IMG/VR virus record: IMGVR_UViG_3300020045_004256
Coordinates: 1 to 24,205 of that record
Source: a virus
Taxonomy: Duplodnaviria > Caudoviricetes
Strand: one strand, 5' to 3'
Length of the DNA stretch: 24,205 nt
In this document: positions 7,668 through 24,205 of the stretch, one piece after another
Layout: every line of letters begins with the position of its first letter
Position numbering within the stretch: the stretch's first letter is position 1
The notes under the pieces: model-generated
Told to the model about the DNA's origin: nothing
The model's database searches: none
Seen by the model: only the letters and a program-made list of their open reading frames with translations
Program-made: the position numbers and the translations under genes

Positions 7668-8746
7668 ATATCCTCATGGTTCTCCATAAATATGGCGTCC
7701 GCCTCGACGACCCTTGCTGTTTTCCCCTTGGCTACATGACAATCTCTTCTGTGCTCAAGCAAAATGGCCACAATGTAACCATAAATAACCAGAACTTGCA
7801 CGACGCGGTGCCACTTGAAGGATATGACGCCGTGCTCTTCACCGGGTTTGAAGACTTCCTGCCGCTGATTAAGCGCGACGCTGCCATCTGTCGGGCAAAT
7901 GGGGTCAAGACCGTACTTGGCGGCGCCCTGGCCACGTTTAAGCCTGAAGCTATGGCGCAGGTCGTAGATACGGTGGTGGTTGGAGAAGGAGAGGATGTTG
8001 TCTGTAGAGCACTGAATGAGCACGGCATCATCCAAGGCACCAAGCCAGATATCAACGCCCTTCCCTGGCCTGACTATGAGGGGTTCGGGGTTGACGAATA
8101 CCATCAGCGCAACGGCCGCAAACATATCGGAGTCTTGACCTCCCGTGGCTGCCCGTTCTCCTGCCGCTTTTGCGCCCAGACCTGCAAAACCCAACAGCGC
8201 GACGTTGATCAGGTGATGGCCGAGGTGGAGAGCTACGGGGAGGTAGACATCATCTTTAACGACAACACCTTTAACCTGAGCAAATCCCGCTTTATTGACA
8301 TTGCCGGCCGGATGCGGCGGCCCTGGTCGGCGGCGATTCGGGTTGACAAGTTCGATGACGACATGGCCCAGGCCGCCAAGGATGGAGGCTGCCAATACTT
8401 TGTGGTTGGTATTGAGTCTTTTCGGCAAGACAAGCTAGACCGGATGAACAAGCGGATTAAGGTTGAGCAGATAACCACCTGCCTAGACCTCCTGCATAAA
8501 TATGGAATCAGATACCACGGCAACATCCTTACCGGACTCCCTGGCGAATCTACCGAGGATATTCTTGACGAGTTAAGGGAGATTCCAGGCGGCTACAATG
8601 TATTTCCTGTGCTGGTTCAGCCTTTCGTCGGCACCGAATACAAGACACGCAGTATTTCCCCGGAAGATGCCGCGTCGTTTAAGGCACTCTACGCAGATAT
8701 CGCCGCCAGCCGTGGCATGAGCATGTACCCAACGCAAAATGATTAG
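7664..8746 (+). CDS. Cobalamin(B12)-binding radical SAM protein
   Basis: PLGYMTISSVLKQNGHNV, VLGGALAT and VVVGEGED (B12-binding Rossmann part), followed by TSRGCPFSCRFC, FNDNTF, GIES and GLPGES (radical SAM barrel). ATGA overlap with the previous gene. Confidence 0.9.
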   Translation: MNILMVLHKYGVRLDDPCCFPLGYMTISSVLKQNGHNVTINNQNLHDAVPLEGYDAVLFTGFEDFLPLIKRDAAICRANGVKTVLGGALATFKPEAMAQVVDTVVVGEGEDVVCRALNEHGIIQGTKPDINALPWPDYEGFGVDEYHQRNGRKHIGVLTSRGCPFSCRFCAQTCKTQQRDVDQVMAEVESYGEVDIIFNDNTFNLSKSRFIDIAGRMRRPWSAAIRVDKFDDDMAQAAKDGGCQYFVVGIESFRQDKLDRMNKRIKVEQITTCLDLLHKYGIRYHGNILTGLPGESTEDILDELREIPGGYNVFPVLVQPFVGTEYKTRSISPEDAASFKALYADIAASRGMSMYPTQND

Positions 8747-9176
8747 AGAAGCCGCTTATTCCGACATTTATGACGTAGGGGTGATGGCCAAGAACTTCGA
8801 GAACCATACTGTCCATGTGAAGGTTGACCCTGGATATACCGCCCTGGTGTATTGGCGCCATATTCTCAAGGGAACCGGGGTTGTTTTTGTAATTGAGAGG
8901 GAAGGCCAAATAGTTGGCGGGCTTGGCGGAATCAAGGGGCCAGACCTCCACTACCCAAGAATTATCGCCGTCGAGACATTCTGGTTCGTCCTTCCAGAAC
9001 ACAGGGGCGAAGGGTTGAAGCTGATGGAGAAATTTGAGCAGTGGGCAGTTGACCAAAAATGCGACGCCGTGGCGATGGTTCACTTATCTGACAGCCAGCC
9101 AAAGGTTTTAGAAAAGATTTACGCACGGAAAGGCTACAGCCTGGTGGAAAAACATTATTTAAAGGTGCTGATATGA
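8739..9176 (+). CDS. GNAT family acetyltransferase (slot of P22 gp14)
   Basis: MIREA...D start, WFVLPEHRGEGLKL acetyl-CoA motif A, and IYARKGY. Confidence 0.88.
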   Translation: MIREAAYSDIYDVGVMAKNFENHTVHVKVDPGYTALVYWRHILKGTGVVFVIEREGQIVGGLGGIKGPDLHYPRIIAVETFWFVLPEHRGEGLKLMEKFEQWAVDQKCDAVAMVHLSDSQPKVLEKIYARKGYSLVEKHYLKVLI

Positions 9177-9862
9177 GTGTGGTTTCTGGAGTTATGGGCG
9201 CCAACGCCGCCGAAGACGCGGCAGGGATGCAAGCCGAATCAGCAGCGCAAGCCAACGAAACACAGTGGAAAATGTACGAGCAGTCTCGGAAAGATCAAAT
9301 GCCGTGGCTCGTCGCCGGTGAAGAAAACCTGGGCAACCTGAACGCAATGGTAGCGGACGGCCCGGGCTCCTTCAAGGACAGCGAGTATTACGACCAGGGG
9401 CTTGAGGAAGCCAACCGGGCCACCGACACCTATCTTGCCTCTCGCGGCCTGTACGGCTCAGGGAAGGCGGCAAAAGACCTCCAGAAAACCGCCGTGTCAA
9501 TTAATACCCAGAACCGGGGAAATTGGTTGAATGAGTGGATCGCCACCAAGCTCAATCCGACTCAATCGCTTGCCGGGGTCGGCCAGTCTGCGGCGGCGGG
9601 GATGGCTGGTAATGCCTTAAATACCGGGAATATTATTGGCAATAACTTGATGTCTGCCGGTAACGCCCGTGCCAACGGGATGATTGGAGCGGCCAATGCC
9701 AGAACGCAGGGGGCGCAGGGGGTAGCCAACGCGGTGGCGTCGTATTATGGGAACTCGGGTGCAGCGGCAGGAGGTGGAGCGGCTAGTGGGGCAAGCAACG
9801 ATTGGGTTGGCACAAGCGCAGGCGGAACGGCGGGAACCACAGCGGGAAGCGAAGGTTGGTAA
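9173..9862 (+). CDS. DNA transfer/ejection protein, P22 gp7-like
   Basis: GANAAEDAAGMQAESAAQANETQWKMYEQSRKDQMPW, RGLYGSG and G/A/N-rich AGNARANG motifs. Follows the GNAT with an ATGA overlap. Confidence 0.8.
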   Translation: MSVVSGVMGANAAEDAAGMQAESAAQANETQWKMYEQSRKDQMPWLVAGEENLGNLNAMVADGPGSFKDSEYYDQGLEEANRATDTYLASRGLYGSGKAAKDLQKTAVSINTQNRGNWLNEWIATKLNPTQSLAGVGQSAAAGMAGNALNTGNIIGNNLMSAGNARANGMIGAANARTQGAQGVANAVASYYGNSGAAAGGGAASGASNDWVGTSAGGTAGTTAGSEGW

Positions 9863-9887: not shown

Positions 9888-10898
9888 ATGTTAACTCAGC
9901 TACCAGAAGTAAAGGTGTTCGACGCTTCCCAGCCAATGCAAAACTATTTGATGGGCAAGGAGAACCAGCGGCAACAGGCCCGCCAAGCAACATCAGACAA
10001 GCAGAACGCCTTGCTCTTCAGCCAGGGGCAAGCAAACTTCGCCAATCAGCAGGCCGACAGGATAACAGACAGGACTGATAAAGACCTGGCCAGGGCGAAT
10101 GCCGCCACGGATCGCACAAACGCCCTGGCGCAACAGGATCTTACCCAGAACGACCAGGCCAATGCGCGAGAGCAACTTTACGCTAGACAGGTCGCCGAAG
10201 AATTTCACAACAACATCTTGAAACTTAACCCAGAACTTCCGCCCGCAGAATGGGAGGCCCAGACCAATGAGTTCATGGACGGCTGGGTTCGCATGGTGGA
10301 TGGCTTCAGGTTGCCACCAGATACGGCGCGTAATTTATCTCGGCGCGGGTTTAACGCCATATCTAAGGAGAATGTGCTGCGGGTTCAGAATGAATACAAA
10401 GCCAAGCTGGCAAAAGAGAACCAAGTAACCCTTTCCCCAGAGCAGCGCATTGTTAACGGCGCCACAGGAGCCGAGGTGGTTGCCGCAGCGGGCAAGCCTG
10501 TGACCAGCAAAGTGGAAGAGCGACAGAAGGGAAACAAAACTGTTTATGTCAAAGTTTATTCAGATGGAAAGGAGGAGGTCGTTCCTGGCTATGGCGGGGA
10601 TAAGTGGAACGCCAAAGACAAGGACAAGGTAACCGAGTCCGACCTGAAGGCGGAAGCCTGGGGCAGAATTTATGCCGGCAAGGCGGTCGATGCTGACCTG
10701 TCCCTGCTCGGCCTCGATAAAGACCCCGCAATGGCGACGGCGGCTAAGATGGTGGCCGACGACTTCAAGATGATGAACAAGACCACCGATGAAAAGATTG
10801 CCGAAGCCACAAGGATTGCCGAAACATTGAGAGGGACGGGCTCATCTGGAAAGAAGTATTTGGCGGCAATGAAGCCTGATCCTCTGGGGCTCAGGTAG
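9888..10898 (+). CDS. Ejection protein, gp20-like by position
   Basis: 336 aa with a Q/A/N-rich helical N-terminus, a TLSPEQRIVNGATGAEV motif and a C-terminal DPLGLR. Strong AAGGAG RBS at 9874-9879. Confidence 0.7.
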   Translation: MLTQLPEVKVFDASQPMQNYLMGKENQRQQARQATSDKQNALLFSQGQANFANQQADRITDRTDKDLARANAATDRTNALAQQDLTQNDQANAREQLYARQVAEEFHNNILKLNPELPPAEWEAQTNEFMDGWVRMVDGFRLPPDTARNLSRRGFNAISKENVLRVQNEYKAKLAKENQVTLSPEQRIVNGATGAEVVAAAGKPVTSKVEERQKGNKTVYVKVYSDGKEEVVPGYGGDKWNAKDKDKVTESDLKAEAWGRIYAGKAVDADLSLLGLDKDPAMATAAKMVADDFKMMNKTTDEKIAEATRIAETLRGTGSSGKKYLAAMKPDPLGLR

Positions 10899-10906
10899 GG
10901 CTTTCC

Positions 10907-10953
10907 CGGGGTTATCCAAATTCACTGAACTTTAACGGGGTTATTGAAATTCA
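10907..10953 (+). repeat. 18-nt imperfect direct repeat upstream of the giant gene
   Basis: CGGGGTTATCCAAATTCA (10907-10924) versus CGGGGTTATTGAAATTCA (10936-10953), 16/18 identical. Confidence 0.75.
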
Positions 10954-13900
10954 TGCAAATCGCAGATATCCGCCAGAAGTACCCGGAGTACAGTGATCTA
11001 TCAGACGGAGAACTTGTTTCTGGCCTGCACAAGAAATTCTACTCAGATATACCCATTGTTGAGTTTTCTAAGAAACTTGGGCTCACAGCGCCCACCGACA
11101 CAATCCAGCCACCAACGGTAACCGGTGAACTAGCGAATGCCGCAAAGAATTATCTTTCAACCCCGTCAACCCCGTCAGCCTTCAAGGATGTTGCCGCGCT
11201 TCCCCAGGTAAAGGCAACCGTTTACCCAGCCCCGGCGCAATTCCCTGTGGAGATGTCGCCATCCCACCAGACATCGAGCGTCGCCATTCCTGCGCCAGTG
11301 AACACCAACGCCTTCAACCCAACTCGTATTGATTCTGGCAAGGTTGATGCTCTTGGGAAGATTGCGAGTGGTGTTTCAGGAGCGGTTGGCAACCTTGGCT
11401 TTGCGGCTACCACTGGTTTAGCAAAAGTATCTGGCGAGTTGGCCAATCTTTCTGTTGGTAATGAGTCGTCGCCACACGGATCAGAGGGCTATCTTAACCG
11501 GGAAACCTTTAAGGAAGCGGAAGACCAGCTTAAAAGACTTTCCCTTTATTGGGAGAAGGGAGCGCAAGACACCACCCTGCCGCAGCAGATTGTTGGCGAT
11601 CTATTCGGCGGGGCTATCCCGGGAATGGTTAGCTTCACGCTCATGCCAGCCCTAGCGGCACGGAAATTATCAGAGGGTGATTTCCTTGGCGCAGCAAAAG
11701 AGGCCGGGGAATATGCCGTAGCCAAGACCATGCTGCACCATATCAACCGGCTGACCCCGGCCCCACGCTTAATGCTGGCCGGAATGTTCGGCGCCGGCCA
11801 GGCCGCTATTGCGGGTGGCGATGCGCGAGACATGGCCAGGGGTGCGGCCACTATGGCTGGGTTTGGGGTCTTGGCTGGTAAGGGCGGCAAGTCTCTCAAG
11901 GATGCAGGCGCAGAATATTTTGCCAAGTTCACTGACTTCAAGGCCCGCCGCGCCGCTCGGAAGATGTGGGAGAATGCACCGGATAGCATGAAGGTTCCGG
12001 CCATTATCGCGCTTGATCAGATGATGGCGAACAACCCTAATATGTCAGAGGGAGAAATAATCAGGCGGTGGCCTCAGTTTATGGATGAGGCGATCGGAAA
12101 AAGAAATTCCGGCGAAAACCAAGGGAAACCAGTCTCTACCGATGGCGCTAATCCTTTAGGGGATGTGATCAACGGGAAGATATCACCCGAGATTCCCCCT
12201 GCTTCCCCTAAGCCTCCACCGACTTCAGGAGAAGGGCCAGGAGTAGGCATCAACGACCTTTCCCGCCCCACCCCCACGACCGGCCCGCAGATTGAGGCAA
12301 CCCGGCAGGCTCCCGCATTCCCAGGTGTCGCCCCGGCAATGATCCCGCCAGCGGCACCGGTTAACGCTCTGGCTTCACCGCAGGCAACCCCGGCCCTTCC
12401 TGCCTATCCCGGCACACCTCCAGCCTTTGAATTACCGAAGCAGGCCGCAGAGGAGCGCAACCTGGACACACAGGGCAATCGAATCGACCGGCGCCAGAAC
12501 CACCCGAGCAACCCGCACGGTATCGAGATGCTGGCCGAGCGCAATAAGCCGCTTGAAAGAGTTCTTGACCGGGCAATGGTGAATCATGCCGATTACGAGA
12601 GATTGAAGGCAACTGATCCCGAGTTGGCAGAGAGGTATAAACGCGCAACAACTGACGAGCTGCTTGGTAGTTATGGGGTTACTAGCTTCGCAGATATAAG
12701 GGAAGTGGCGGGAAGTTTTGATAAACAGAATATCCCGTATGTTATTGAGCGGGCGGACGGGGGCAATCTGGGCGGGGCCAACGATAAACATGGCGGCAAC
12801 CACGAAGGCGCCAATAGGGATATCCGTCAAGTATGGGGTGATGTTTATGTCCGCAGAGTGCGAGAGCACGGCGGCTTAGTGTCTCGCGATCAGGGCGATG
12901 AGATTTTAACGATCTGGCCTAACTACACCCTGGCCGAAGTTGAGACTATCCGCGCCGAGATTGAAAACGAAGTACGCGCCAAGCGGGACGAGTTGGGATA
13001 TTCAGACACCTTCCATCCCAAGAAAGGTCTTCCAACTGGCGCCCTGCATATCAATTACGGCCTGGCGGAAGGAGTGCCAGGGAAGTTCGCCGAACAAGAG
13101 AAGGTCGCAGAGTTTGGGCAGCACAACCAGAAAAAGAAAGAAATAGCTACCATTGCAGAGAAGAATGGTTATATTCTTAACCAGGAGACAAAGAAATATG
13201 AGCCAAGAAAGCTGGAACATACGCCAGGGGCTCCCGGCGAACGCGACCGACCAGGAATCGCTGATACACTCGGCGCAGTTCGCCCCGACGCAGGACTTGC
13301 GGCAGCAGGCACACGAAATCCTGGTGGACGCAGAGAAGAAGGGAATTTTCCCGCCGAGGGAAACAGTGGTCAAGTAGCCAAACATCTCGGGGAAACCCTA
13401 TCCGCCGACACGGAATCTGGCCAGCACATCCCGCTTCAGTACGGTCTAGCTGAAGCGCAAGACCTCGTTACATCCCACGACGACCAACTCCAAGTAAACC
13501 CCGAATATCCCGCAGAACTACAACCCCGGAACCGCGACCGCGCCGCCTATGCCCTCCAGGTTGCCAAGATTGCCAATGAGATTAAACCGTCCTGGCTTGT
13601 CAATAATTACAAGGTCAATGAAGGCGCCCCGGTTGTCAGCGGTCAGGGAGAAGTTGAGAGCGGCAATGGCCGGACAATCGGCATTCGTCAAGCATACGCC
13701 ACCGGAAAGGCTGCCGAGTACAAAAAATATCTGGCCAACAACGCCGAGAAGTTTGGGCTTACTGCTGATCAGGTGAACAGTATGACCGCCCCTGTCTTGG
13801 TGCGGATCAGAACAGGGAGCATGTCCGCCGAAGAGCGCATCGCCTTCGCCCAAGAGGCCAACGTCAGCGGAGTTACCAAAGTTTCCACTGTTGAGCAGGC

Positions 13901-16900
13901 CAAGATTGACGCGGCAAAACTCGAATCTCTTGACCAGTTTGTACCGAATGAGTCTGGTGAGGTAAAGGACGCGGCCAACCGGGGCTTTATCCGCTACTTT
14001 ATTGAAAGGGTTGTGCCGGCTGCCGAGCGCAATTCCATGATGGATAGCGACGGCAATCTTTCACAAGAAGGAGAGCGCCGGGTAAAGGCCGCTATCTTCG
14101 CCAAGGCTTACGATAATCAGAAAGTTCTTTCCCGCCTCCTAGAGTCCACCGATTCAAATGTGAAGAATATCACCGGGGCCATGCTTAACGCCGCCCCGGG
14201 TGTTGCCGCCTTGCGCCAAGGCATGAAGGCCGGCAACCTTTACGATCTGGATGCCACCGCCGACATCGGCACAGCAGTCGAGAAATTCGCCGAGATTAAA
14301 TCTAAGGGCGACAGTGTTAAAGCCTTCCTTCAGCAGACCAATATGTTTGGTGGCGGGATGCCCGAAAGCCAGAAAGCCATTCTTGGCTATCTTGACGGCG
14401 CCTCTCGCTCACGCAAGCAAGTTCAAGCCTTTATTCAGTCATACGTCGATGTGGTTAACGGCCTGGGTAACCCAAACCAGTTATCTCTATTGGGCGGCAG
14501 CAAGGAAGTGCCAACCCTGCCCGCAGTTCTTGACCGGGCCATAAGCCGGGCCAACGAGAAGAGCGACAAGGGGCAGACCCTTTTTAGTAACGTCAAAACC
14601 CCGCCTGCTATTGATTTGACGCCAGAGACACCAGTCGCCCCCGCAGCAATCACAACCCCGGACGCCTCTACTTCTACCCCGGCAGAAGCAAGCGCCACGC
14701 ATGGGGGCAAGAGAACCGCCACCATAACACAAGGAGATGTCGGGCAATGGACGGTATCATTCCTTGAAGATGGGCAGGAGGTGTCATCGTCTAATCCGCA
14801 AAGCGAGGCTGCTGCAATAGCGAAGAAAATTAATTGGGAGAAAGGGCGAAAGGCAGGGCCAGTCCCCATCCACAGCCAAGAGGCGGAAATAGATCGAGCC
14901 GCCACTGCCGGGTACGAGTTCGCCAAAAATAATGGGCCGGGAGTTCGATTGGCTCCGCCTGCGTGGGTAGAACAAGACGACTTCACCTCGCTTGCGTTTA
15001 AAATCGGCGCCAGAAGATATTTTGACGAGAACCCATCCGGGGTTACTTCCGAAATAAAGAAAGGCGAGATTGGCGGCAAGATGTCAGAGGGCGAAACAGT
15101 CCTGACCTCTTCCGGTCGAACCACCACCCCTTTCCCGAAAATTGACACCACGACCAACACCAAGACCATCTTTACCGTCAAGCGCGGAACGGCCTGGTTA
15201 ATGGATAATGCCATTGCCGAGGCCCAGGCCAGGGGGGATAGCTTCAACCTGCGCCAGTTCGAGTCGAATAAGGCCAAGCCAAGCCAAGCGGACAAGGATA
15301 GCGCCGAGTTGTACTTGTTTGGTGAGCAACCTGCCGTCAAGCCAAGCATTTTGAAGGACCTGACCCCGAAGGCTCCAGTCCCACGGCCGGCCGCTCTTAC
15401 CGAAAGAGACGCCACCACCGAAGAGCGGATCATCAGCGAGAAGGCACCGGCAGTCCTCGACCTGGCCAACAAGCCAACGGGATGGAAACAGCTTGTCGGC
15501 GAAAACCGTGATTCCGTCACACTGGTCACCATTGACGGGAAAAAGGCGATAGCGTTTACCAACCCCGACGCCAAGAGCGGGGCGGAAGCAATGCGAATGA
15601 TGGCTAAAGCCCACGCCTACGCCATTGACAACCCCTATTCGATTCCAGAATCGTCTCCTGGTGAGCTTGTTGTTAAGCCCCTGGTCGGCCAATCGGCACC
15701 AGCCAAATCAGGGAAGCATGTCTCTAGTCTAGGGATGTCCTACGAGGCCGCAGTTGAAAAGAACCTGATCCACATGGGAACGCCCCGGGCGCAATGGTCG
15801 GCGGTCAAGGTATCAGGAGCCGAGGATGACGGCGCCGGACACCTTATGCCTATTTTTGATTTTCCTAAAGGGTACACCGACGCCCCGACGCTATTCCCGA
15901 TTTCTGGCTCTGACTCTAATTGTGAGCTTTGTGGAAATGGGATTAAGATTATTTATCACCTCCAGAACGACACAAGGAAATGGAATCTGAAGGTTGGTAG
16001 CGAATGTGTTACGCACTTCACTGAAGGAGTAGCCGGTGAGCAACTTACTAAACAGGCTGTTTGGGAAATCAACAGGGCTCTCGCCCGTAAAGTGATAGCG
16101 GCAAGGAAAAAATTATGGGAAGTCTTCGCCACTCCAAGCACAGGTAGTTATGGCCGGCAGGGCAGAGCGATCAATAACCAGATAGCCGCTGGTACGCACG
16201 GTAGGATCAAAGAGCTGACAAAGAATATCTTGGCTGACAAGCCCAAGTTAAGCGGCATGGAGGCCACAGCAGACGGAGCGATAACTAGATGGGTGGCGGT
16301 AAACAAGGATGAGCTCTCGGCGCTTATTGATAAGGCTGCTGACCTTATTGAGAAAAAAACCGGAATCCGCCCGACCTTCGAGGAGGCCAGTGTTGTTCAA
16401 TCTGAAGTAACGACAAATACCACTCCCGCCCCTCTTCCCGAAGGCGTCCATAAAGATGTAGTTGAACGCCTGGAGATGGAACTTGCCACCGCTCAAGATC
16501 GAGCCGCCAGAGAGCAGGCCGCGTCGAAACGGTTGCATGAGTCAGACAATATCCCCGGCTCTTTCGTTACCGGGCGCAGCAATCAGCACAAGGGCTTGCA
16601 GAAGAAACGCGGGGCCATGAATGAACGGCTCATGCGCCAGCACGACAAACTCCAAGCCGCCGAAAAGAGCTTGGCCGAAGCCGAGCGGCGCCTGGCTGGT
16701 TACCGGTCGGGAGAATTCCACGAAAACGGCCAACCCCGGGCCGCCTCGCCGTCCCGCCTGGCTGCCGCTAAAACGGTTGGAACTTATGCCGACTACATCA
16801 GGGCCAGGGTAAGCAAGGGCGATACGGTTACCTTCCTGCCTAATCCTCGCGCGGGAGGTGTGGAGGTTAAGCGCCTCAACGTCAAGACCGTGACGCTATC

Positions 16901-19900
16901 CACCGGGACGAATTGGACATACGACAATATCGCTCCCATGAAAGACGGCCGGGAGATGACCCGGGAGGAGTTGAAGGCGGATATTAAGGCATGGCACCAG
17001 ACCGATCAGGCTGTGCCGGTTGAGAGCTCACCATCCAAAGAAGTTACAGCCAAAAAATCTCTTACCGAAATGGTTGACGAAGCTCTTGCAGGAAGAGCTG
17101 TTGGGAATAAGGCCGACGCCCTTCGGAAACAAGCCGACAAGCTCACCAGCGAAGCTATGTCTATGCTTGATCGGATTCCGCCAGGGCAGCCAGTAGGATC
17201 GCCAAGAGACAGGAATCTTCGGGATAAGTCAGCAGAGAAAATGCGCCAAGCCGGAGAGCTGAATAAACAGGCGGAAGAAATAGAACTAAAGCCAGCCAGA
17301 CCTCAGCCGGTTGAGAAGGCGACACCCCCCTCTGCACAGGTTGAGTGGACACCAGAGCAGCAAGTCAAGATTTCCGCCGACACCCTCAACGAATTGCGGC
17401 CCGACGATGTTTACCGGGTTCTTGAATCAACCCCGGCAGAACACCGGGACGCGATGAAATGGGCGATCATTAAGGAGCATTCCAGCAATCAGCGGATTCA
17501 AGACGAAGTGCGCTCGGCGATGGACGAACTGGCCGCTGAGAAGTTGGGCGAAAAGATTCCACCCAGCCCTGCCAAGTCCGAGAAGCCCAAGGTTATCTCC
17601 TGGGAGAAGCCAGACCAAAAGCAGCTCGAGGAAGAATGGAAAACTGAACAGCTTGATTCACTTTTCTTCACCGGCTACCCGAAACCAGAACAGGCCAGAG
17701 CCTACAAGCAACAGTGGTTTGCCGCCCTGGACGACTTCAGCGCACCCGAAAAGGTTGATCCTCAAGACTTCAAAGCCGACCTTTATATCGCCGAGTCCGA
17801 CGAGAAGCTGGCCGAAAATATCAAGCACATGAACAAGAATGTTCCTGGCGTCAGGGCCATGCTTGATAGTGGAAAGGCTCCAATGCCGGTCGTTATCCGC
17901 AAGGAAGGCAAGCTGAAGATTCTGGCCGGACGCACCCGGATGAGCCTGGCGGCGATGTCTGGCCAGGAAGTTGAGGCGCTGGTAATCGACGACAAAAAGA
18001 TGCGCGAAGCCTTCTACCCTATGCGCCGGGCCGAGTTCCTCGATCACGGATGGGGAATCTTTGGATTTAGCCCGAAACCCAGCTATCCCAAGATCATTGA
18101 CTACATTGAGGGCCGAACAGAAGAGCTTCCAGTTCTCGGGGTTGACCCGAATGCTACCCCTGAGAAAGTGAAAAAAGAGGTAGAGCGCCTGATGAAGCAC
18201 CTGGGCGCCACCAGTAGGGAAAACGCAAAAGCAATGTCTCCAGGGCCGGCCAGCACCGAAGCGCCCGCCGAATCATCCTTGCCCGCCACAAGCCAGCAAG
18301 ATGCCATTGCAACGCCCAGCAAGATTGATCAGGCCACCAGGGAAAATCCCGATATCAAAACAACCCTGGCTTTCCACAATGAAACGATTGAGCGCCTGGC
18401 CAACGGTGAAGCCACCCTGGCCGAATACAAAGCCGGGTTCACTCGCCTCCTGAACAGCCAGGCAGAATTGACCGCCGAGTTCTCCAAGATGAGCAAGCAG
18501 GCCATTATGGATGAGATTGGCGGCCATACTGCCGACCGGATGAGGGGAGACAAGAAGGATGTGGCTGTGCGAAGTGCCGTCGATGCGCTGGTAAATGATT
18601 ATTTCATCAGCAAAGAAGGCGGGATGGGCAGTATTAGTTATGAGATTGGCGGGGATTATCGCACCTCTCGCAACGCCGCTATTCAGAAGAAGATTGACGA
18701 CTTTACCGAAGAAGACTTGAAAGCATACGCCGCCAGGGTGAAGGCGAACCGGGAAAAGTACGCCGCCCGGCAGGAGCAGGCCGAAGAGGCCGTAAAAGAC
18801 CCGAAGACCCTGAGCGACTTCAAGGATTATTTCCGCGCCAAGATGAGCCCGACCGTTTCCTTCAAGGAGGTTTACCGAGGGCTCACACCTGAACAGCAGG
18901 CCGCTTTTGATAGCCACTCGGCAGGCGAGAGCCGCCCGGCCAGGATCGCCGCCCTGGAGAAACGCCGCACCTCTGTTCGTGTTGCAGACCAGACAACCGG
19001 CGCCGTTGTTGTTCCGGGGATGCACAAGAAACATAATGTCCCGATTTGGACTGTCCAGCTTGGTGAAAAGGTTGACCGGGCCAGCTACGAGGCTCTGCTT
19101 GGCACCGCTAAACAGATGGGCGGCACCTACGTCAACAGAATGAAAGCTCGGATGTATAACACCGATGACGGCTTCCAGTTCCGCGACCAGGCCAAGGCCG
19201 ACGCCTTTGTTAAACTGGTGGCCGGCGATAAGACCGAGGCCGAGCAGGTAGTCAAGGAGCGCCGCGATTCCTTCAAGGACGACCGCAGCCAAAGCGCCGT
19301 CGAGCGCCTTAACGAGATGGCCGACAAGCTCGACGAGCGGGCCGGCGAATCTCTTGGACGGGATCGGAAAGAGAATACCTCCAGGCGGGCAGACCAGTCG
19401 GCCCGGGCCGAAGCCACAGCCAATGCCGAAAAGGCTATGGCCACCACCATGCGGAATATTGCCAACGCGATTGAATCGGGCTCGGCAGAACTTCTTGATC
19501 AGGTGCGCCAGAAGGTTCAGGTTGAAACCCTTCAGAAGTTCCTGAACAATGCCCGCAACGGCGAGTACCCGAATTACAGCGATTGGGAAAAACACCGCTA
19601 CGACCCGCCAACAACCAAGACCGCTGGCTTTGTTGAGTACCCGCAATATACCGCTTTCCGGTCGGATTGGGCCAGACTCGGGCGCCAGTTGCGCGAGATT
19701 GACGGAACCAAGAAACTCGGCGCCGGAATCCTGAAGGTTGCCGATGATGTGACCGCAGCCTACGAGAAGTTTGCCAAGGACAATATTAAGTCAACGCACG
19801 GTTTTAGCGAGAAGTCTGTTGCCCGCTTCAGGACAACCAGCGGCGGCCAGGCAACTTTCAAATCAAAGACCCTGGCGGAAGATTCTATCGACCGCTCAGG

Positions 19901-22900
19901 ATATCGCGGGAAAGCTATCGCCCTCAAGATCAAGAATGGCGAATACCAGATTATAATGAGCCCCGAGTCCGCAAGAGAGGCTGGCATCTGGGAAGGCGAC
20001 AGCGACAAGCGCATTACGATGGCCCCGGATGTAGGCGCCGAGATTGTGGCCAAGGTTAAGGCGATGAGCCGTAGCCAGCGCGTCGATATGCCTTGGATGT
20101 TTGAGGTGGTGCGCGATGACCGCGCCCGGCTGGCGGCGATGGGCTTTGAAACCCCGGCTGAGCTTCGAGCCGCCCTGCGTGAGTTTATTAATCTCAGAGA
20201 AGCCCCGAAACAGGCCGACAAGATTAAGCAGATGGAACGCGAGATGATTGGCCGGGCCAAGGACGGGCTTGACTTCTTCCCCACCCCGAAAGCCACCGCC
20301 CAGGAGATGATCGACGCGGCCGGGATCACCGAGGGTATGAAGGTGCTGGAGCCGTCTGCCGGGATGGGACATATTGCCGAGCAAGTGCGAGAGTCAGGAG
20401 CCGAGCCCGATGTGGTCGAGATGTCAAACGACCGGCGCGAGTTGCTGGAGGCCAAGGGCTTCAATGTGGTTGGCCGAGACTTCATGGATATGAAATCGGC
20501 TCCCGAACCAATATGGAAGTATGAGGAATACACCCCGTTTTCACGACAACTAGCCAAAGATTACACCCGGTCAGAACTGGAGTCGCAGCGCGATAAGTAC
20601 GACGCAAATCGAAGTGGTTTGGCTGCCAGCCACGAAAGAGCAATATCCGCCACCTCTTCAATGACAAGCAATAGCGCCCGCCGTGCTGGCTCTAGAAATT
20701 CGATGACCGGGAATTATGAAGATTTTCAGAACAGAGTTAACGCTCTCGAAATCTATGATAACTACCCAGAGAAGACCAAGGAAGGGGGAAATGTCCAGGC
20801 TGGTGGTTATGACCGAATCATAATGAACCCGCCGTTCTCTGACCGCCGTGACGCGCAGCACGTTCAACATGCCTTCACCCTCCTTAAACCGGGTGGCCGG
20901 GTGGTGGCTATCATGGGAGAGGGCGTGTTCTTCGGCCAGGACAAGAAGGCCGTCGCTTTCAGAGAATGGCTTGATGAGGTTGGCGGAACCGCCGAAAAGC
21001 TGGAGTCTGGGACATTCCTTGACCCATCCCTACCGGTTAACACCGGAGTTTCTGCCCGTATGGTTGTTATTGATAAACCGGGCGGGCAGATGGTTACCAG
21101 TGAACCGGCCGCCCCTTACGCGGCGGAATATGATAGTGTTGCCGAAGGAGATATTGAAAGCGAAAGCGTGATTACTCGGGCGGTTGATACCGAGTCGCCA
21201 GAGTTCAAACAGTTCTTCGGCCCCTCTGTTGTCACCATCGACGGCGAGGCCGGTAGCGCCCCGCTGGTGGTCTATAAGGGGATGCTCAAGCATGACTGGA
21301 AGACCGGCAGGGAAATCACCTCTATCGACTCACCAAATGGCCCTTGGGCTGGTTTCTTCACCGACTCCGCCGATGTGGCCGACAAGTTCCAAAAAGCCTT
21401 TGCCACAATGGGCGAAGCCAGGACAATCCAGGTTTATTTGAATATCCGCAACCCCTATGTCATTGACGCCAAGGGTGGCCGAGCCAAAGACTTCATGTTT
21501 GATGATGCCGTGTTTGGGAAAGACCCAACTAACCCGGGCGCCGCTGCCGCCTTCCGGCAAGGCCATGATGGTGTGATCATTAAGAACACAGCAGACGAAG
21601 GAGCGGTTTATATCCCGGCCCGGCCCACTCAGATCAAATCAGCCACCTCCAACACCGGGGAGTTTTCCCTCACTAACCCGAATATCACCAGAGAGCCCAC
21701 GGCCGAGTATCAAACCACCGTCATCGAGCCAGCCAAAGCCTTCTATTCCAAGCTGAAAGATGTCTCGGTTGGGAAGTTTATAGGCATGAAGGCCCAGAGC
21801 GTCGAGCCCTACCTGCTCAAGCAAGGCGTGAAGAAAGCAGAGATTGAGGCCACCGGGCTGCGTGAATGGCTGGCCGCCAAGAAGCCAACCGACAAGGTGA
21901 CCCAGGCCGAGCTTGAGAACTTCGTCAAGGCGAATACCGTTGAGCTTGAGGATGTGGTGTTGGGGAAGAACAAGACAACCGGCGTTCACGATACAGACCA
22001 TGGGTGGCGCAACGCCATAGACATTGCCTTTGATGCAGGCAGAGAGGCCGAGGCTGACAGGCTCACGGCGGGGTATGACTCGTGGAGAGCATCAGGGGGC
22101 GCGACAGACACCCACTTCTCCCAATACACCGAACCCGGCGCGGTTGAGGGCAGCTACCGGGAGATGTTTGTTACGGCTCCAGGTGTCAACGTACCTACCG
22201 AAAACGGGCGCCTCTGGCGTGACGGTCACTCTCAGTACGGAGAAGTAGAGAACCCTGTTGTCCGTATCCGGTTCAACGCGGTCGAGGCCGACGGCAAGCG
22301 CGTTTTAAGAATTGAAGAGATGCAGGGACCGAACCCCGACAACCAAGCCAAGATGCCCGCCTACCTCAAGGAGAACATCTACCAGCTTGGCGTGAAGCGC
22401 ATCCTGGCCTATGCGAAGGCGAACGGCTTTGACGGGGTGGCGCTGGCGACCAAGCCAGGACGGACTGCGGGCGAGACTCAGGCGGATCGGTACTCGCTGG
22501 AGAAGCAGGTTGACAAAATATCAGTGGATAAGACTGCCAGCGGAACGTACCGGTTGCAGGTCTGGGGGCCAGAAAACAACTCCATATATTCCAACAAGAA
22601 CGGTAAGGCAATTACCGCCGACGGACTTGTGCCGATTGTTGGCAAGGAGCTGGCGCAGAAAATATCCGAGCAAGAACCTCTGAGTGGGAAGACCTATTCT
22701 GGGGTTGACCTCAAGGTAGGCGGCGAAGGCCTGAAGAAACTCTACGACACCGACCTCCCCCGCATGTTCGAGGCCTACGGCAAGGGAAAGATGGGGGCGG
22801 TGGAAACACCAGAGACTAAGGATATCCATATGCGATATTCTCCAGACCGTTACGAATGGAACGGGCCAGTTCCTACTCTGGAAGATGTCAAAACAATGAT

Positions 22901-24205
22901 GGAGATATCCGAAAAATCCGGCCCTCCTATTTTTGACAATCCTTTCACCGGCCAGCGCCAGGACTTCGCAATAAATACTGTTGGAACTCACCGGTCACTC
23001 AAGGAAGTCTATCGGGATGTTTCCAGCGGCGAATATGATATGAAGGAAGCTCTTATAGCGAAAGGGGCAACCACCGTATTCGGGGCCAATGTTATCCCTA
23101 TCGCCTCCGGTTCGACCATACCCTACATCCCCATCACCCAGAACACCCCGACCAGCTTCGCTACTTTCGAGCCCCGCCAGATGAGCTTCGGCTACGCCAA
23201 GCGACCCGAAACCCTCACGCCAGCGCAGAAGGACAACGAGGCCAAAGCTATCGCAGGGGCAACCGCACAAATCAAGGGATTGCCTGGGACTGTACTCGCA
23301 AACAAAATAGCCAAGGACTTCAAAGATAACAGTAAAACCAATATCTTAGGGCAACAAGTTAATGGGATAGATGACATGGCTGTAATCGGTCAAATATTCC
23401 GCAACCCTCACTTTGAAACCAACCGCTATGTGTTTGTGAAGGATGGAAAGATTGTCAATATCACCGGCGTAACCTCCCGCCTTCCTGGTTCGGCTGCGGC
23501 CTTTATTGGTAGAAATACCGACGCGGCTAAGGGCGCCACCCAGATTCAAGGGATGATTGATCAATCCGGGGCTAATGGCTTCTACCTGCTCCATAATCAC
23601 CCGAGCGGCAACCCACGGCCAAGCGGACTTGATATTGAATTCACCAAGTTCATCGAACACAAGTTTGCCGACCAGTTCCAGGGCCATGTTGTGATCAACC
23701 ACGACAGCTACGCAACCATCAAGGGCGGGAGTATTGAAGTCAAGCCCCTCTCAATGGCTACCCAAGAGCCCGGCCGGTACGGTGCGGCCAGCGGAATAAC
23801 CACCCCCCACCCTCTTATCGGAACGCTGATAAATAGTTCACGCACCCTGGCAGCTTCGGCGGCGAAGTTGCAGGCCGACGAGAGTACCTTTCAAATAATC
23901 GGCACCAGCGGTTCGTCTGGCACGGTGGCGGGGATTATGGATATCCCTGTAAGTGCGGTGAACAAGGCGAAGGGGTTGCGACTGGTGGCCATGCTTCGGC
24001 AGTTTGCCCGGGCAACAGGATCAGCGCAGGTGTTCGCCGTGAACATTCCAGACAAGGCCGGTATCGACTTTGAGCGGGCGATAAAGAACGGAGTGCTAGT
24101 CGATGCGCACTATTCGTCCTACGGTTCTTTGTCCGACGCAGGAATTCACCCGGAAGGAGATGTTGACTTCGGACGCAGTGGAATCAAGGGGTTAAAGGTC
24201 AGTGA
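10953..24205 (+). CDS. Giant polyvalent (multi-effector) ejection/internal virion protein, at least 4417 aa, 3'-truncated by the window
   Basis: Manual translation of frame +3 from ATG 10953 (MQIADIRQKYPEYSDLSDGELVSGLHKKFYSDIP) found no stop up to the window end (...GLKVS). Many enzyme motifs occur in this frame. It occupies the P22 gp16 position. Confidence 0.93.
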   Translation, partial: MQIADIRQKYPEYSDLSDGELVSGLHKKFYSDIPIVEFSKKLGLTAPTDTIQPPTVTGELANAAKNYLSTPSTPSAFKDVAALPQVKATVYPAPAQFPVEMSPSHQTSSVAIPAPVNTNAFNPTRIDSGKVDALGKIASGVSGAVGNLGFAATTGLAKVSGELANLSVGNESSPHGSEGYLNRETFKEAEDQLKRLSLYWEKGAQDTTLPQQIVGDLFGGAIPGMVSFTLMPALAARKLSEGDFLGAAKEAGEYAVAKTMLHHINRLTPAPRLMLAGMFGAGQAAIAGGDARDMARGAATMAGFGVLAGKGGKSLKDAGAEYFAKFTDFKARRAARKMWENAPDSMKVPAIIALDQMMANNPNMSEGEIIRRWPQFMDEAIGKRNSGENQGKPVSTDGANPLGDVINGKISPEIPPASPKPPPTSGEGPGVGINDLSRPTPTTGPQIEATRQAPAFPGVAPAMIPPAAPVNALASPQATPALPAYPGTPPAFELPKQAAEERNLDTQGNRIDRRQNHPSNPHGIEMLAERNKPLERVLDRAMVNHADYERLKATDPELAERYKRATTDELLGSYGVTSFADIREVAGSFDKQNIPYVIERADGGNLGGANDKHGGNHEGANRDIRQVWGDVYVRRVREHGGLVSRDQGDEILTIWPNYTLAEVETIRAEIENEVRAKRDELGYSDTFHPKKGLPTGALHINYGLAEGVPGKFAEQEKVAEFGQHNQKKKEIATIAEKNGYILNQETKKYEPRKLEHTPGAPGERDRPGIADTLGAVRPDAGLAAAGTRNPGGRREEGNFPAEGNSGQVAKHLGETLSADTESGQHIPLQYGLAEAQDLVTSHDDQLQVNPEYPAELQPRNRDRAAYALQVAKIANEIKPSWLVNNYKVNEGAPVVSGQGEVESGNGRTIGIRQAYATGKAAEYKKYLANNAEKFGLTADQVNSMTAPVLVRIRTGSMSAEERIAFAQEANVSGVTKVSTVEQAKIDAAKLESLDQFVPNESGEVKDAANRGFIRYFIERVVPAAERNSMMDSDGNLSQEGERRVKAAIFAKAYDNQKVLSRLLESTDSNVKNITGAMLNAAPGVAALRQGMKAGNLYDLDATADIGTAVEKFAEIKSKGDSVKAFLQQTNMFGGGMPESQKAILGYLDGASRSRKQVQAFIQSYVDVVNGLGNPNQLSLLGGSKEVPTLPAVLDRAISRANEKSDKGQTLFSNVKTPPAIDLTPETPVAPAAITTPDASTSTPAEASATHGGKRTATITQGDVGQWTVSFLEDGQEVSSSNPQSEAAAIAKKINWEKGRKAGPVPIHSQEAEIDRAATAGYEFAKNNGPGVRLAPPAWVEQDDFTSLAFKIGARRYFDENPSGVTSEIKKGEIGGKMSEGETVLTSSGRTTTPFPKIDTTTNTKTIFTVKRGTAWLMDNAIAEAQARGDSFNLRQFESNKAKPSQADKDSAELYLFGEQPAVKPSILKDLTPKAPVPRPAALTERDATTEERIISEKAPAVLDLANKPTGWKQLVGENRDSVTLVTIDGKKAIAFTNPDAKSGAEAMRMMAKAHAYAIDNPYSIPESSPGELVVKPLVGQSAPAKSGKHVSSLGMSYEAAVEKNLIHMGTPRAQWSAVKVSGAEDDGAGHLMPIFDFPKGYTDAPTLFPISGSDSNCELCGNGIKIIYHLQNDTRKWNLKVGSECVTHFTEGVAGEQLTKQAVWEINRALARKVIAARKKLWEVFATPSTGSYGRQGRAINNQIAAGTHGRIKELTKNILADKPKLSGMEATADGAITRWVAVNKDELSALIDKAADLIEKKTGIRPTFEEASVVQSEVTTNTTPAPLPEGVHKDVVERLEMELATAQDRAAREQAASKRLHESDNIPGSFVTGRSNQHKGLQKKRGAMNERLMRQHDKLQAAEKSLAEAERRLAGYRSGEFHENGQPRAASPSRLAAAKTVGTYADYIRARVSKGDTVTFLPNPRAGGVEVKRLNVKTVTLSTGTNWTYDNIAPMKDGREMTREELKADIKAWHQTDQAVPVESSPSKEVTAKKSLTEMVDEALAGRAVGNKADALRKQADKLTSEAMSMLDRIPPGQPVGSPRDRNLRDKSAEKMRQAGELNKQAEEIELKPARPQPVEKATPPSAQVEWTPEQQVKISADTLNELRPDDVYRVLESTPAEHRDAMKWAIIKEHSSNQRIQDEVRSAMDELAAEKLGEKIPPSPAKSEKPKVISWEKPDQKQLEEEWKTEQLDSLFFTGYPKPEQARAYKQQWFAALDDFSAPEKVDPQDFKADLYIAESDEKLAENIKHMNKNVPGVRAMLDSGKAPMPVVIRKEGKLKILAGRTRMSLAAMSGQEVEALVIDDKKMREAFYPMRRAEFLDHGWGIFGFSPKPSYPKIIDYIEGRTEELPVLGVDPNATPEKVKKEVERLMKHLGATSRENAKAMSPGPASTEAPAESSLPATSQQDAIATPSKIDQATRENPDIKTTLAFHNETIERLANGEATLAEYKAGFTRLLNSQAELTAEFSKMSKQAIMDEIGGHTADRMRGDKKDVAVRSAVDALVNDYFISKEGGMGSISYEIGGDYRTSRNAAIQKKIDDFTEEDLKAYAARVKANREKYAARQEQAEEAVKDPKTLSDFKDYFRAKMSPTVSFKEVYRGLTPEQQAAFDSHSAGESRPARIAALEKRRTSVRVADQTTGAVVVPGMHKKHNVPIWTVQLGEKVDRASYEALLGTAKQMGGTYVNRMKARMYNTDDGFQFRDQAKADAFVKLVAGDKTEAEQVVKERRDSFKDDRSQSAVERLNEMADKLDERAGESLGRDRKENTSRRADQSARAEATANAEKAMATTMRNIANAIESGSAELLDQVRQKVQVETLQKFLNNARNGEYPNYSDWEKHRYDPPTTKTAGFVEYPQYTAFRSDWARLGRQLREIDGTKKLGAGILKVADDVTAAYEKFAKDNIKSTHGFSEKSVARFRTTSGGQATFKSKTLAEDSIDRSGYRGKAIALKIKNGEYQIIMSPESAREAGIWEGDSDKRITMAPDVGAEIVAKVKAMSRSQRVDMPWMFEVVRDDRARLAAMGFETPAELRAALREFINLREAPKQADKIKQMEREMIGRAKDGLDFFPTPKATAQEMIDAAGITEGMKVLEPSAGMGHIAEQVRESGAEPDVVEMSNDRRELLEAKGFNVVGRDFMDMKSAPEPIWKYEEYTPFSRQLAKDYTRSELESQRDKYDANRSGLAASHERAISATSSMTSNSARRAGSRNSMTGNYEDFQNRVNALEIYDNYPEKTKEGGNVQAGGYDRIIMNPPFSDRRDAQHVQHAFTLLKPGGRVVAIMGEGVFFGQDKKAVAFREWLDEVGGTAEKLESGTFLDPSLPVNTGVSARMVVIDKPGGQMVTSEPAAPYAAEYDSVAEGDIESESVITRAVDTESPEFKQFFGPSVVTIDGEAGSAPLVVYKGMLKHDWKTGREITSIDSPNGPWAGFFTDSADVADKFQKAFATMGEARTIQVYLNIRNPYVIDAKGGRAKDFMFDDAVFGKDPTNPGAAAAFRQGHDGVIIKNTADEGAVYIPARPTQIKSATSNTGEFSLTNPNITREPTAEYQTTVIEPAKAFYSKLKDVSVGKFIGMKAQSVEPYLLKQGVKKAEIEATGLREWLAAKKPTDKVTQAELENFVKANTVELEDVVLGKNKTTGVHDTDHGWRNAIDIAFDAGREAEADRLTAGYDSWRASGGATDTHFSQYTEPGAVEGSYREMFVTAPGVNVPTENGRLWRDGHSQYGEVENPVVRIRFNAVEADGKRVLRIEEMQGPNPDNQAKMPAYLKENIYQLGVKRILAYAKANGFDGVALATKPGRTAGETQADRYSLEKQVDKISVDKTASGTYRLQVWGPENNSIYSNKNGKAITADGLVPIVGKELAQKISEQEPLSGKTYSGVDLKVGGEGLKKLYDTDLPRMFEAYGKGKMGAVETPETKDIHMRYSPDRYEWNGPVPTLEDVKTMMEISEKSGPPIFDNPFTGQRQDFAINTVGTHRSLKEVYRDVSSGEYDMKEALIAKGATTVFGANVIPIASGSTIPYIPITQNTPTSFATFEPRQMSFGYAKRPETLTPAQKDNEAKAIAGATAQIKGLPGTVLANKIAKDFKDNSKTNILGQQVNGIDDMAVIGQIFRNPHFETNRYVFVKDGKIVNITGVTSRLPGSAAAFIGRNTDAAKGATQIQGMIDQSGANGFYLLHNHPSGNPRPSGLDIEFTKFIEHKFADQFQGHVVINHDSYATIKGGSIEVKPLSMATQEPGRYGAASGITTPHPLIGTLINSSRTLAASAAKLQADESTFQIIGTSGSSGTVAGIMDIPVSAVNKAKGLRLVAMLRQFARATGSAQVFAVNIPDKAGIDFERAIKNGVLVDAHYSSYGSLSDAGIHPEGDVDFGRSGIKGLKVS
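12642..13139 (+). other. Divergent GGDEF-like (nucleotide cyclase palm) domain within the giant ORF
   Basis: RATTDELLG...PYVIERADGGNLGGANDKHGGNHEGANRDIRQV...LVSRDQGDEILTIWP...LHINYGLA...AEFGQHNQKK is colinear with the GGDEF consensus TDxLTG...DLDxFKxINDxxGHxxGD...VARxGGDEFxILLP...SIGIA...ADxALYxAK. Confidence 0.72.
13198..13377 (+). CDS. Nested out-of-frame small ORF (59 aa) inside the giant gene, candidate partner or inhibitor of the GGDEF-like domain
   Basis: AGGAG at 13183-13187, ATG at 13198, TAG at 13375-13377. Product MSQESWNIRQGLPANATDQESLIHSAQFAPTQDLRQQAHEILVDAEKKGIFPPRETVVK. The host frame here is a G/R/P-rich linker. Confidence 0.55.
   Translation: MSQESWNIRQGLPANATDQESLIHSAQFAPTQDLRQQAHEILVDAEKKGIFPPRETVVK
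13395..14460 (+). other. DdrB-like ParB domain plus trailing helical region
   Basis: YGLAEAQDLVTSH...NPEYPAELQPRNRDR...GAPVV...VESGNGRT...PVLVR is the signature of the phage P1 DdrB-like ParB family. Boundaries are approximate. Confidence 0.85.
15921..16019 (+). other. Small Zn-binding module
   Basis: CELCGNGIKIIYHLQND...LKVGSECVTHF, with CxxC plus distal His/Cys ligands. Confidence 0.6.
17601..17990 (+). other. Second ParB/sulfiredoxin-fold domain
   Basis: AMLDSGKAPMPVVIRKEGKLKILAGRTRMSLAAMSGQEVEALVID fits the P-h-h-h...h-h-x-G-x-x-R-h-x-x-A...G...V-x-h-h-h-D ParB core. Confidence 0.65.
20271..21080 (+). other. N6-adenine DNA methyltransferase domain (class I SAM-dependent) with internal insertion
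   Basis: DFFPTP (motif X), VLEPSAGMG (motif I, 20343-20369), YDRIIMNPPF (motif IV, 20808-20837) and LLKPGGRVVAIM. Confidence 0.9.
21186..21686 (+). other. ADP-ribosyltransferase-like domain (ART-PolyVal type), variant active site
   Basis: SPEFKQFFGPSVV...PLVVYKG...GFFTD...VYLNIRNP...GHDGVII...PTQIKSATSNTGEFS..NPNI. Confidence 0.8.
21738..22790 (+). other. Recurrent polyvalent-protein domain of uncertain activity (possibly GNAT-like fold)
   Basis: FYSKL...GVKKAEIEATGLREWL...FSQYTEPG..SYRE...GKRVLRIEEMQG...KRILAYAKANGFDGVAL...GGEGLKKLYD. Confidence 0.55.
23343..23720 (+). other. RadC-like JAB/MPN metallo-domain
   Basis: Glu at 23415 (FET), HNHPSGNPRPSGLD at 23592-23633 (HxH-x7-S-x2-D), and GHVVIN. 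Confidence 0.88.

Follow-up and report, generated by a model that had tools for sequence, protein, structure and literature searches.

A giant phage protein with a GGDEF module

The window analysed here is the whole contig of a virus (Duplodnaviria; Caudoviricetes; IMG/VR record IMGVR_UViG_3300020045_004256), at its full length of 24,205 bases. Its plus strand carries an open reading frame (ORF) for a giant polyvalent protein, in which we found a divergent domain with a predicted GGDEF fold, directly followed by a small ORF nested in the +1 frame. The giant ORF and the GGDEF module are arranged as follows.

10944..24203, plus strand: giant polyvalent protein of more than 4,420 amino acids (aa), open at the 3' end of the record; alternative start at ATG 10953
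12534..13220, plus strand: divergent GGDEF module, aa 531-759 (229 aa), with an N-terminal two-helix extension, a palm, a long C-terminal helix and a short beta-hairpin
12534..12653, plus strand: two predicted helices before the wide-turn Asp (12654), at the position of the dimerising helix of cellular cyclases

A preliminary description, made from the sequence alone, had placed a GGDEF-like cyclase at 12642..13139. This span is indeed in frame in the giant ORF (aa 567-732), but the conserved unit is larger, from about 12534 to 13220, and four short stand-alone homologues start with the two-helix stretch. An AlphaFold model built from 48 sequences has GGDEF topology with a predicted local distance difference test score (pLDDT) of 93.8, and the model of 12534..13220 reached 93.1. 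The predicted structure contains the elements characteristic of the GGDEF superfamily PF00990, namely the palm, two helices between beta1 and the beta2-beta3 hairpin, and the preceding wide-turn Asp. Foldseek against the PDB gave DgcB as the best match (E 3.5e-9), and all 35 matches listed are GGDEF-domain proteins. In the VIA structure search, which covered 48,161 chains, ranks 1 to 32 were all GGDEF entries with Z from 16.4 to 12.5 (best match: Z 16.4, root-mean-square deviation 2.2, 148 aligned residues). PleD reached 15.6 and GacA 15.3, with DgcR, PleD, WspR and DgcB together at 15.2-15.6. GTP cyclohydrolase III (10.8), adenylate cyclases (at most 10.1), the mCpol OptS (9.3) and the Cas10-type Cmr2 (8.8) scored below the GGDEF entries, and an identity as Cas10, mCpol or adenylate cyclase was rejected for this reason. 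Thg1 was not among the best 50 VIA matches, and one viral tRNA-His guanylyltransferase matched weakly (E 0.24). The predicted fold is thus the GGDEF palm proposed in the preliminary description.

At the sequence level, the domain in the window lies below detection in Pfam, NCBIfam, PHROGs, PADLOC and PDB sequences and does not reach the PF00990 gathering cut-off. The word-index protein search gave no match with the single domain, and two known matches plus one bacterial GGDEF with the alignment. ESM Atlas features lead to GGDEF clusters with low shared-feature counts, which we take as a lead only, and the Atlas model of the closest relative has GGDEF matches. As the model exhibits GGDEF topology, the top structural matches are GGDEF proteins exclusively and the homologues grade into canonical GGDEF sequences, the domain is more than a chance resemblance. 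The lack of a Pfam match, together with an Ile for Phe in the motif and a Glu for Asp282, could indicate that the domain of this phage is a decayed, inactive relic. This is very improbable, as all family-invariant residues are present, the frame is open, the identity to the closest relative is 57%, and the nested ORF and its ribosome-binding site are intact.

Homologues of the GGDEF module

A phmmer search against 1.84 billion representatives returned 60 matches, 42 of them at E<=1e-10. P0048 and P0049 showed no domain on re-search and P0044 and P0059 were judged false by eye, which left 59 domains in 56 proteins. P0056 and P0061 are large proteins that each contain two canonical GGDEF domains, with an additional poly(A) polymerase head domain in P0056; they were excluded from the family counts and retained in the tree. 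The family as counted here therefore comprises 55 domains in 54 proteins, 42 of which have at least 1,000 aa. Among the 24 of the 60 matches that were scanned with Pfam, PF00990 appears at E<=0.01 in 16 and over the cut-off in eight, two of the latter being canonical GGDEF proteins, and 11 carry polyvalent-type domains. Rec, PAS and GAF domains were found by Pfam neither in these 24 homologues nor in the giant protein, in agreement with the sensor-less enzyme that had been proposed. The homologues intergrade with canonical GGDEF sequences. For comparison, we used the 30 best-scoring of the 48 GGDEF matches of G001, the genome that bears a prophage relative; these are called host GGDEFs below.

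Several candidates were set aside. L001-L003 are chance matches that gave no score with the family profile, the match in L002 lying inside an ORF that resembles a carboxylesterase, and L004 and L005 match other parts of P0002 and likewise gave no family-profile score. An upstream [ED]RR motif, present in the window as D-R-R at 12486-12494 (plus strand), was rejected as a family feature because it occurs in only 5/43 homologues.

Some variants were observed on the way. P0035, P0053, P0055 and P0057 are short stand-alone members of 313-384 aa, of which three end with G-M-D/E-L/I and one with L-G-M; such tails also occur in conjugative-element proteins. A plasmid search with the stand-alone homologue P0058 gave one weak match. 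In L043:1500-2250, an insertion of about 30 residues separates the base-pocket Asn from the His. L048-L051, L055, L056, L059 and L060 have other viral GGDEF domains, located in long frames, that lack the Lys hairpin described below and mostly show W-I/V-N-D; they apparently form a second phage GGDEF subfamily.

Catalytic residues

Residues are numbered as in DgcR (PMC8041772), the numbering being transferred by motif spacing in the alignment, without superposition. All residues named in the preliminary description were found where it had placed them, in frame within the giant ORF.

12687..12689, plus strand: Phe at the cross-dimer Arg site (DgcR R147, GacA Y304)
12756..12815, plus strand: metal Asp 12756, Gly at the catalytic-Lys site 12771, Asn 12780, His 12801, Asn at the guanine-reading site 12813
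12885..12905, plus strand: R-D-Q-G-D-E-I loop (GGDEF motif), with Asp 12897
13014..13040, plus strand: family-specific hairpin insertion H-x-K...G-L-P-T-G; Lys or Arg in 50/52, absent from the 30 host GGDEFs
13110..13133, plus strand: C-terminal helix with Glu at DgcR D282, His at Y286 and a conserved Lys 13131

The metal and triphosphate half of the site is well conserved in the family. The metal Asp is found in 52/53 domains, Asn182 in 53/53 and His187 in 46/53. The loop exhibits Arg in 46 and Lys in 6 of 54 domains, its Asp is present in 53/54 and is never replaced by Glu (host GGDEFs: Glu 20, Asp 10), and Glu218 is kept in 53/54. Position 282 is Asp or Glu in 49/51 and the C-terminal Lys is present in 43/50. 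The acidic catalytic residues are thus conserved in the homologues. The absence of an I-site, the RxxD motif of feedback inhibition, also holds for the whole family: E-H-G-G occupies this position in the window, and RxxD occurs in 0/55 family domains versus 27/30 host GGDEFs.

Compared with canonical diguanylate cyclases, the module has the metal Asp, the sugar-edge Asn, a (D/E)E loop and the C-terminal Lys; it lacks the guanine-reading Asp (DgcR D191), Lys179, Arg147 and a GG(D/E)EF motif. In the DgcR dimer model, Lys179, Arg147, Asp183 and Tyr286 lie at the productive dimer face, and His187-Asp282 and Asp183-Tyr286 form cross-dimer pairs (PMC8041772). The first of these pairs is retained in the family and the second is lost. 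Judging from the alignment, strong selection acts on the metal and triphosphate half of the site. Together with the conserved His187-Asp282 pair, this argues for a working palm that uses nucleoside triphosphates (NTPs) and has a rebuilt dimer face, although the residues do not prove cyclisation.

The guanine-reading site

The site corresponding to D191 in DgcR exhibits Asp in 30, Asn in 21 and Glu in 2 of 53 family domains, and Ser or Thr in none (0/53), whereas it is Asp in all 30 host GGDEFs. We built a maximum-likelihood tree of 56 rows (Asp 32, Asn 23 including the query, Glu 1; four short fragments excluded), the bootstrap of which had not fully settled. On this tree the Asp/Asn label changes 11 times, and eight of these changes are forced by well-supported branches. 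The query clusters (97/86) with P0002, P0003 and P0007, its three closest relatives, all of which have Asp.

The preliminary description had likened the Asn to the product switch of Hypr enzymes. This does not hold, as Hypr enzymes have Ser or Thr at the base-reading site (PMC6456294), Asp is found in more than half of the family, the label changes repeatedly and the three closest relatives have Asp. Hypr membership was rejected for want of a Ser or Thr, and Asn as a family hallmark was rejected given the Asp majority and the interchange across the tree. Other Hypr features are present, namely the Asp in the middle of the motif (12897) and the non-Arg cross-dimer residue (Phe 12687). As the toggle is restricted to Asp and Asn, the site matters; it is constrained, with only Asp, Asn and Glu allowed, and the toggle itself may be neutral or tuning.

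It could nevertheless be argued that, with Asn for Asp and a remodelled pocket, the enzyme now makes mainly a non-canonical signal, such as cyclic GMP-AMP (cGAMP) or another mixed or 2'-linked dinucleotide, which would jam or decoy nucleotide-based defence. We consider this distinctly unlikely. Asn is indeed frequent in the family and absent from the host GGDEFs, and its recurrent exchange with Asp could be diversifying, but Asp remains the majority state and the two codons differ by a single base, so the change may be nearly neutral. The replacement of the cross-dimer Arg (Phe here) is shared with cGAMP-favouring Hypr enzymes, and the Asp in the middle of the motif is what a non-Asp reader needs, as reported in PMC6456294, but the Hypr signature in the same source is Ser/Thr and not Asn. 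In mCpol, a Ser/Asn swap at a base contact, a position that may be equivalent to this one, inverts the product ratio, but the Asn favoured the guanine-containing product (PMC12657218). Our literature search found no test of an Asn variant at the guanine-reading site, and cGAMP synthesis could trigger the host defence rather than jam it. If the module is the cyclase that we propose below, its Asn is a tolerated or tuning swap and not a fixed product switch.

A small ORF nested behind the module

Directly behind the GGDEF domain, we found a second ORF that the preliminary description had overlooked.

13183..13187, plus strand: AGGAG, ribosome-binding-site-like motif, 10 nucleotides (nt) upstream of the nested ATG
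13198..13377, plus strand: nested +1-frame ORF of 59 codons (59 aa) with an R-x-G-L motif; candidate inhibitor or partner of the GGDEF module

The ATG at 13198 lies inside the main-frame Tyr-Glu codons. The same layout, with a Shine-Dalgarno-like motif and R-x-G-L/W, is found in L006, L008, L042, L043, L061 and L062, where the peptides have 39-90 aa. The nested ORF is therefore present in 7/7 testable loci, i.e., the window and the six relatives with DNA behind the domain; L007 ends within the domain and is outside this count, and L042 and L043 were counted as family members on visual inspection of the hairpin. The expectation for such ORFs, from three giant ORFs, is 0.05-0.14 per 420 nt. The nested frame is under selection in its own frame. 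Over 42 codons, the window, L006 and L008 share 14-17 residues pairwise in the nested frame versus 6-9 in the main frame, third-position identity of the main frame is 60% in the overlap versus 37% in the domain core, and an Arg and a Gly are invariant in all seven peptides. Among 17 viral GGDEF loci without the hairpin, an imperfect control since several main frames end early, a single nested ORF was seen in an open main frame, without the motif. Of the protein-only homologues, 19/50 have Tyr-Glu close to the end of the domain, versus 170/3,116 background windows. The nested peptides gave no match in the word-index protein search and no family over the cut-off, and a word search of the main text of PMC5512222 did not find the nested gene.

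The enzyme had been described as unregulated. This is probably wrong, because a small gene is conserved directly behind the domain in all testable loci. Such a gene behind an effector domain usually indicates an effector-immunity pairing. Alternatively, the peptide could be an activator or scaffold that either dimerises the palms or contributes its own invariant Arg to make up for the lost Arg or Lys. The cyclase would then work only where the two are produced together, late in infection or in a lysogen. The invariant Arg and Gly, the loss of the cross-dimer Arg and Lys from the family and the prophage state of one relative, on a 4.26-Mb contig, are all compatible with such a role. However, if the injected enzyme depended on a separately made partner, it could not act on entry unless the virion also carried the peptide, and small genes behind effector domains usually confer immunity; the activator role is, on balance, decidedly doubtful.

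Genomic setting of the giant protein

The late genes on the plus strand of the window are in a P22-like order: head scaffold, major head protein, head-tail adaptor, head closure Hc3, two radical SAM genes, an acetyltransferase, a DNA ejection gene, a 336-aa ORF and the giant ORF. The further features of this region and of the giant ORF are listed below.

9173..9862, plus strand: DNA ejection protein, two genes upstream of the giant ORF (phrog_598, E 1.8e-22)
9888..10898, plus strand: 336-aa ORF without family match; by gene order, probably in the position of a second ejection protein
13416..13811, plus strand: ddrB-like ParB domain in the giant ORF (PF18763, E 7.9e-34)
20283..20912, plus strand: probable adenine methyltransferase in the giant ORF; weak Pfam matches below the cut-off, strong match to a PHROG named DNA methyltransferase
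21258..21665, plus strand: ART-PolyVal domain in the giant ORF (PF18760, E 1.1e-12)
23562..23666, plus strand: core of a RadC-like JAB domain in the giant ORF (PF04002)

We presume that the giant ORF occupies the slot of the third ejection gene of P22. The phrog_598 gene supports a position among ejection-protein genes. A DUF3560 domain is also present in the giant ORF. With several unrelated enzymatic domains (ddrB-ParB, ART-PolyVal, RadC, methyltransferase) in one large chain, encoded among late virion genes, its product is a polyvalent protein in the sense of PMC5512222. It is likely injected, by analogy with other phages: a 4,515-aa DarB-like protein was detected in purified JC1 virions (PMC9144972), and about 12 copies of gp16 are injected by P22 (PMC8402733).

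Other observations concern the same region. The two radical SAM genes lie within the virion module (6678-8746, plus strand), one with the HMPTM zinc ribbon PF23545 and one B12-binding, and a 188-aa ORF of no known family (6112-6678) also lies between the head closure and ejection genes. Within the giant ORF, aa ~1650-1720 (~15900-16100, plus strand) contain an unannotated C-x-x-C and a later C-x-x-H, possibly zinc-binding, with no relevant Pfam match. The segment at aa ~2290-2370 (~17800-18050, plus strand) has P-V-V-I and I-L-A-G-R-T-R motifs and no Pfam match; it presumably resembles a second ParB/Srx-type domain. In the methyltransferase (20283-20912, plus strand), an insertion of about 100 residues separates the S-adenosylmethionine-binding part from the NPPF motif.

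Distribution and possible hosts

P0007, with 57% identity, is on a 1.3-kb contig of a Desulfurivibrionaceae metagenome-assembled genome (MAG). P0008 matches a 2,907-aa ORF in L008, located in a prophage-like block of genes on a 4.26-Mb contig of a Desulfovibrionaceae MAG, and P0005 matches the 2,839-aa ORF of L006 in a complete phage of 55.7 kb. Together with the 48 GGDEF matches in G001, this hints at sulfate-reducer-type hosts that are rich in GGDEF genes, as far as the assignment of these contigs indicates. Two samples of 401 related genomes (phylum of G001, order of G002) contained no match at E<=1e-20 other than the seed genome. A search of 50,697 GenBank phage records gave no match, i.e., no cultured phage there carries the subfamily, and two viral scans found no relative.

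Comparison with known systems

GGDEF domains in polyvalent proteins of phages and prophages, with the idea of cyclic-nucleotide interference, were proposed in 2017 by Iyer, Burroughs, Anand, de Souza and Aravind (PMC5512222). As in the cases described there, the present GGDEF belongs to a giant late-gene protein that also contains ddrB-ParB, ART, RadC and methyltransferase domains. The subfamily differs in that it is mostly below the Pfam cut-off (8/24 scanned pass), and its remodelled dimer face, Asp/Asn toggle, Lys hairpin and nested +1-frame gene set it apart from those presented in the main text of that paper. What is added here is the nested ORF; both the occurrence of GGDEF domains in polyvalent proteins and the idea of interference go back to that study.

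With the canonical diguanylate cyclases DgcR, PleD, WspR and DgcB, the module shares the predicted fold, the metal Asp, the Asn, the loop Asp-Glu, the His and the C-terminal Lys; in contrast, it has Gln for the first Gly of the motif, Asn for Asp191 and no Lys179, Arg147 or Tyr286, and it lacks both I-site and input domain. As in the Hypr enzyme GacA (Z 15.3), the base reader is not Asp, the middle of the motif is Asp and an aromatic residue occupies the cross-dimer Arg site, but the module has Asn instead of Ser/Thr, has no Rec domain and is phage-borne (PMC6456294). The mCpol OptS of Panoptes, considered here together with the Cas10 palm, is likewise a constitutive, sensor-less palm making cyclic nucleotides, and Asn at the base contact changes mCpol products. 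However, its fold is clearly more distant (OptS Z 9.3, Cmr2 8.8), it is host-encoded and paired with a membrane effector (PMC12657218), and the phage module has no PADLOC match.

The position of the nested ORF is reminiscent of polymorphic-toxin effector-immunity pairs, in which a small gene lies directly behind an enzymatic domain, and the +1-frame overlap is reminiscent of lambda Rz/Rz1, a pair of out-of-frame nested phage genes. Unlike these, the nested peptide has no family match. In other phages, a gene of phage G is annotated as a probable diguanylate cyclase (PMC12484599) and a phage peptide binds a host cyclase and raises cyclic dimeric GMP (c-di-GMP; PMC11461919). Our literature search found no experimental test of a phage-delivered GGDEF.

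Proposed function

Based on these observations, we tentatively favour, with somewhat less than even confidence, a sensor-less cyclic-dinucleotide synthase that the nested peptide keeps inactive in the producing cell and that becomes active once delivered. The giant protein would be packaged and ejected in several copies. Two palms would pair head to head, as suggested by the retention of His187 and Asp282 of the DgcR dimer model, and would condense two purine NTPs without feedback, most likely still using GTP, possibly with relaxed selectivity. Since an enzyme with neither sensor nor I-site would harm the producing cell, a small co-expressed gene behind the domain would be the simplest safety catch. 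The peptide inhibitor would remain in the producing cell, leaving the enzyme active only in the newly infected one, where the signal pulse would disturb host functions controlled by c-di-GMP or cGAMP.

Several points weigh against this mechanism. The family mostly lacks Lys179 (14/53 versus 30/30 host GGDEFs), Arg147 (6/53, with Phe in 20/53, versus 28/30), Asp183 (8/53 versus 30/30) and Tyr286 (2/51 versus 29/30), and with these dimer-face residues lost, cyclisation may be slow or absent. Pfam and NCBIfam do not detect the domain. For the peptide, a putative product with a candidate binding partner, an activator role fits the genetics equally well. The N-A-T motif is not family-wide, its imprint being found in 6/50 homologues versus 109/2,319 background windows. 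Finally, the Asp-to-Ser change of the base reader alone inactivated 4/5 canonical GGDEFs (PMC6456294).

The joint loss of these four residues, with the metal and triphosphate residues kept, could also point to an effector that is not a cyclase, i.e., a single palm that binds or consumes NTPs (pyrophosphatase-like, linear-product, nucleotidyl-transfer, or a binder of GTP or cyclic nucleotides), with the nested peptide as its immunity protein. The gain of a conserved Lys/Arg hairpin (50/52) would fit this explanation, as would the top VIA match, the GGDEF domain of FimX, which we take to be non-catalytic, although it is tied with active enzymes. Against it, His187 (46/53) and Asp/Glu282 (49/51), the modelled cross-dimer pair of DgcR, are retained, and the fourth-position Glu, a proposed cross-dimer base or second-metal ligand, is kept in 53/54. 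We regard such an effector as rather unlikely.

Going further, the module may be a phage-delivered pair of signal synthase and immunity protein, in which the injected palm makes a non-canonical cyclic dinucleotide, tuned by the Asp/Asn toggle, that jams or pacifies the nucleotide-based defence of the host, while the overprinted peptide disarms it in the producing cell. We give this extended version little credence, but if true, it would represent a phage-encoded signal maker used as counter-defence, whereas the counter-measures covered in a review degrade, sequester or block host nucleotide signals (PMC13712596). The value of the finding is tempered, because the class has already been catalogued and the subfamily is missing from the cultured phages among the 50,697 records searched. 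The module nonetheless makes a compact construct of 229 aa, close relatives (57% identity) provide a natural pair of Asp and Asn forms, and the 59-aa peptide is a candidate inhibitor; the nested partner and the natural pair make the 2017 prediction directly testable. The candidate inhibitor would allow a possibly toxic enzyme to be cloned and would give a GGDEF domain a natural regulator in the form of a peptide.

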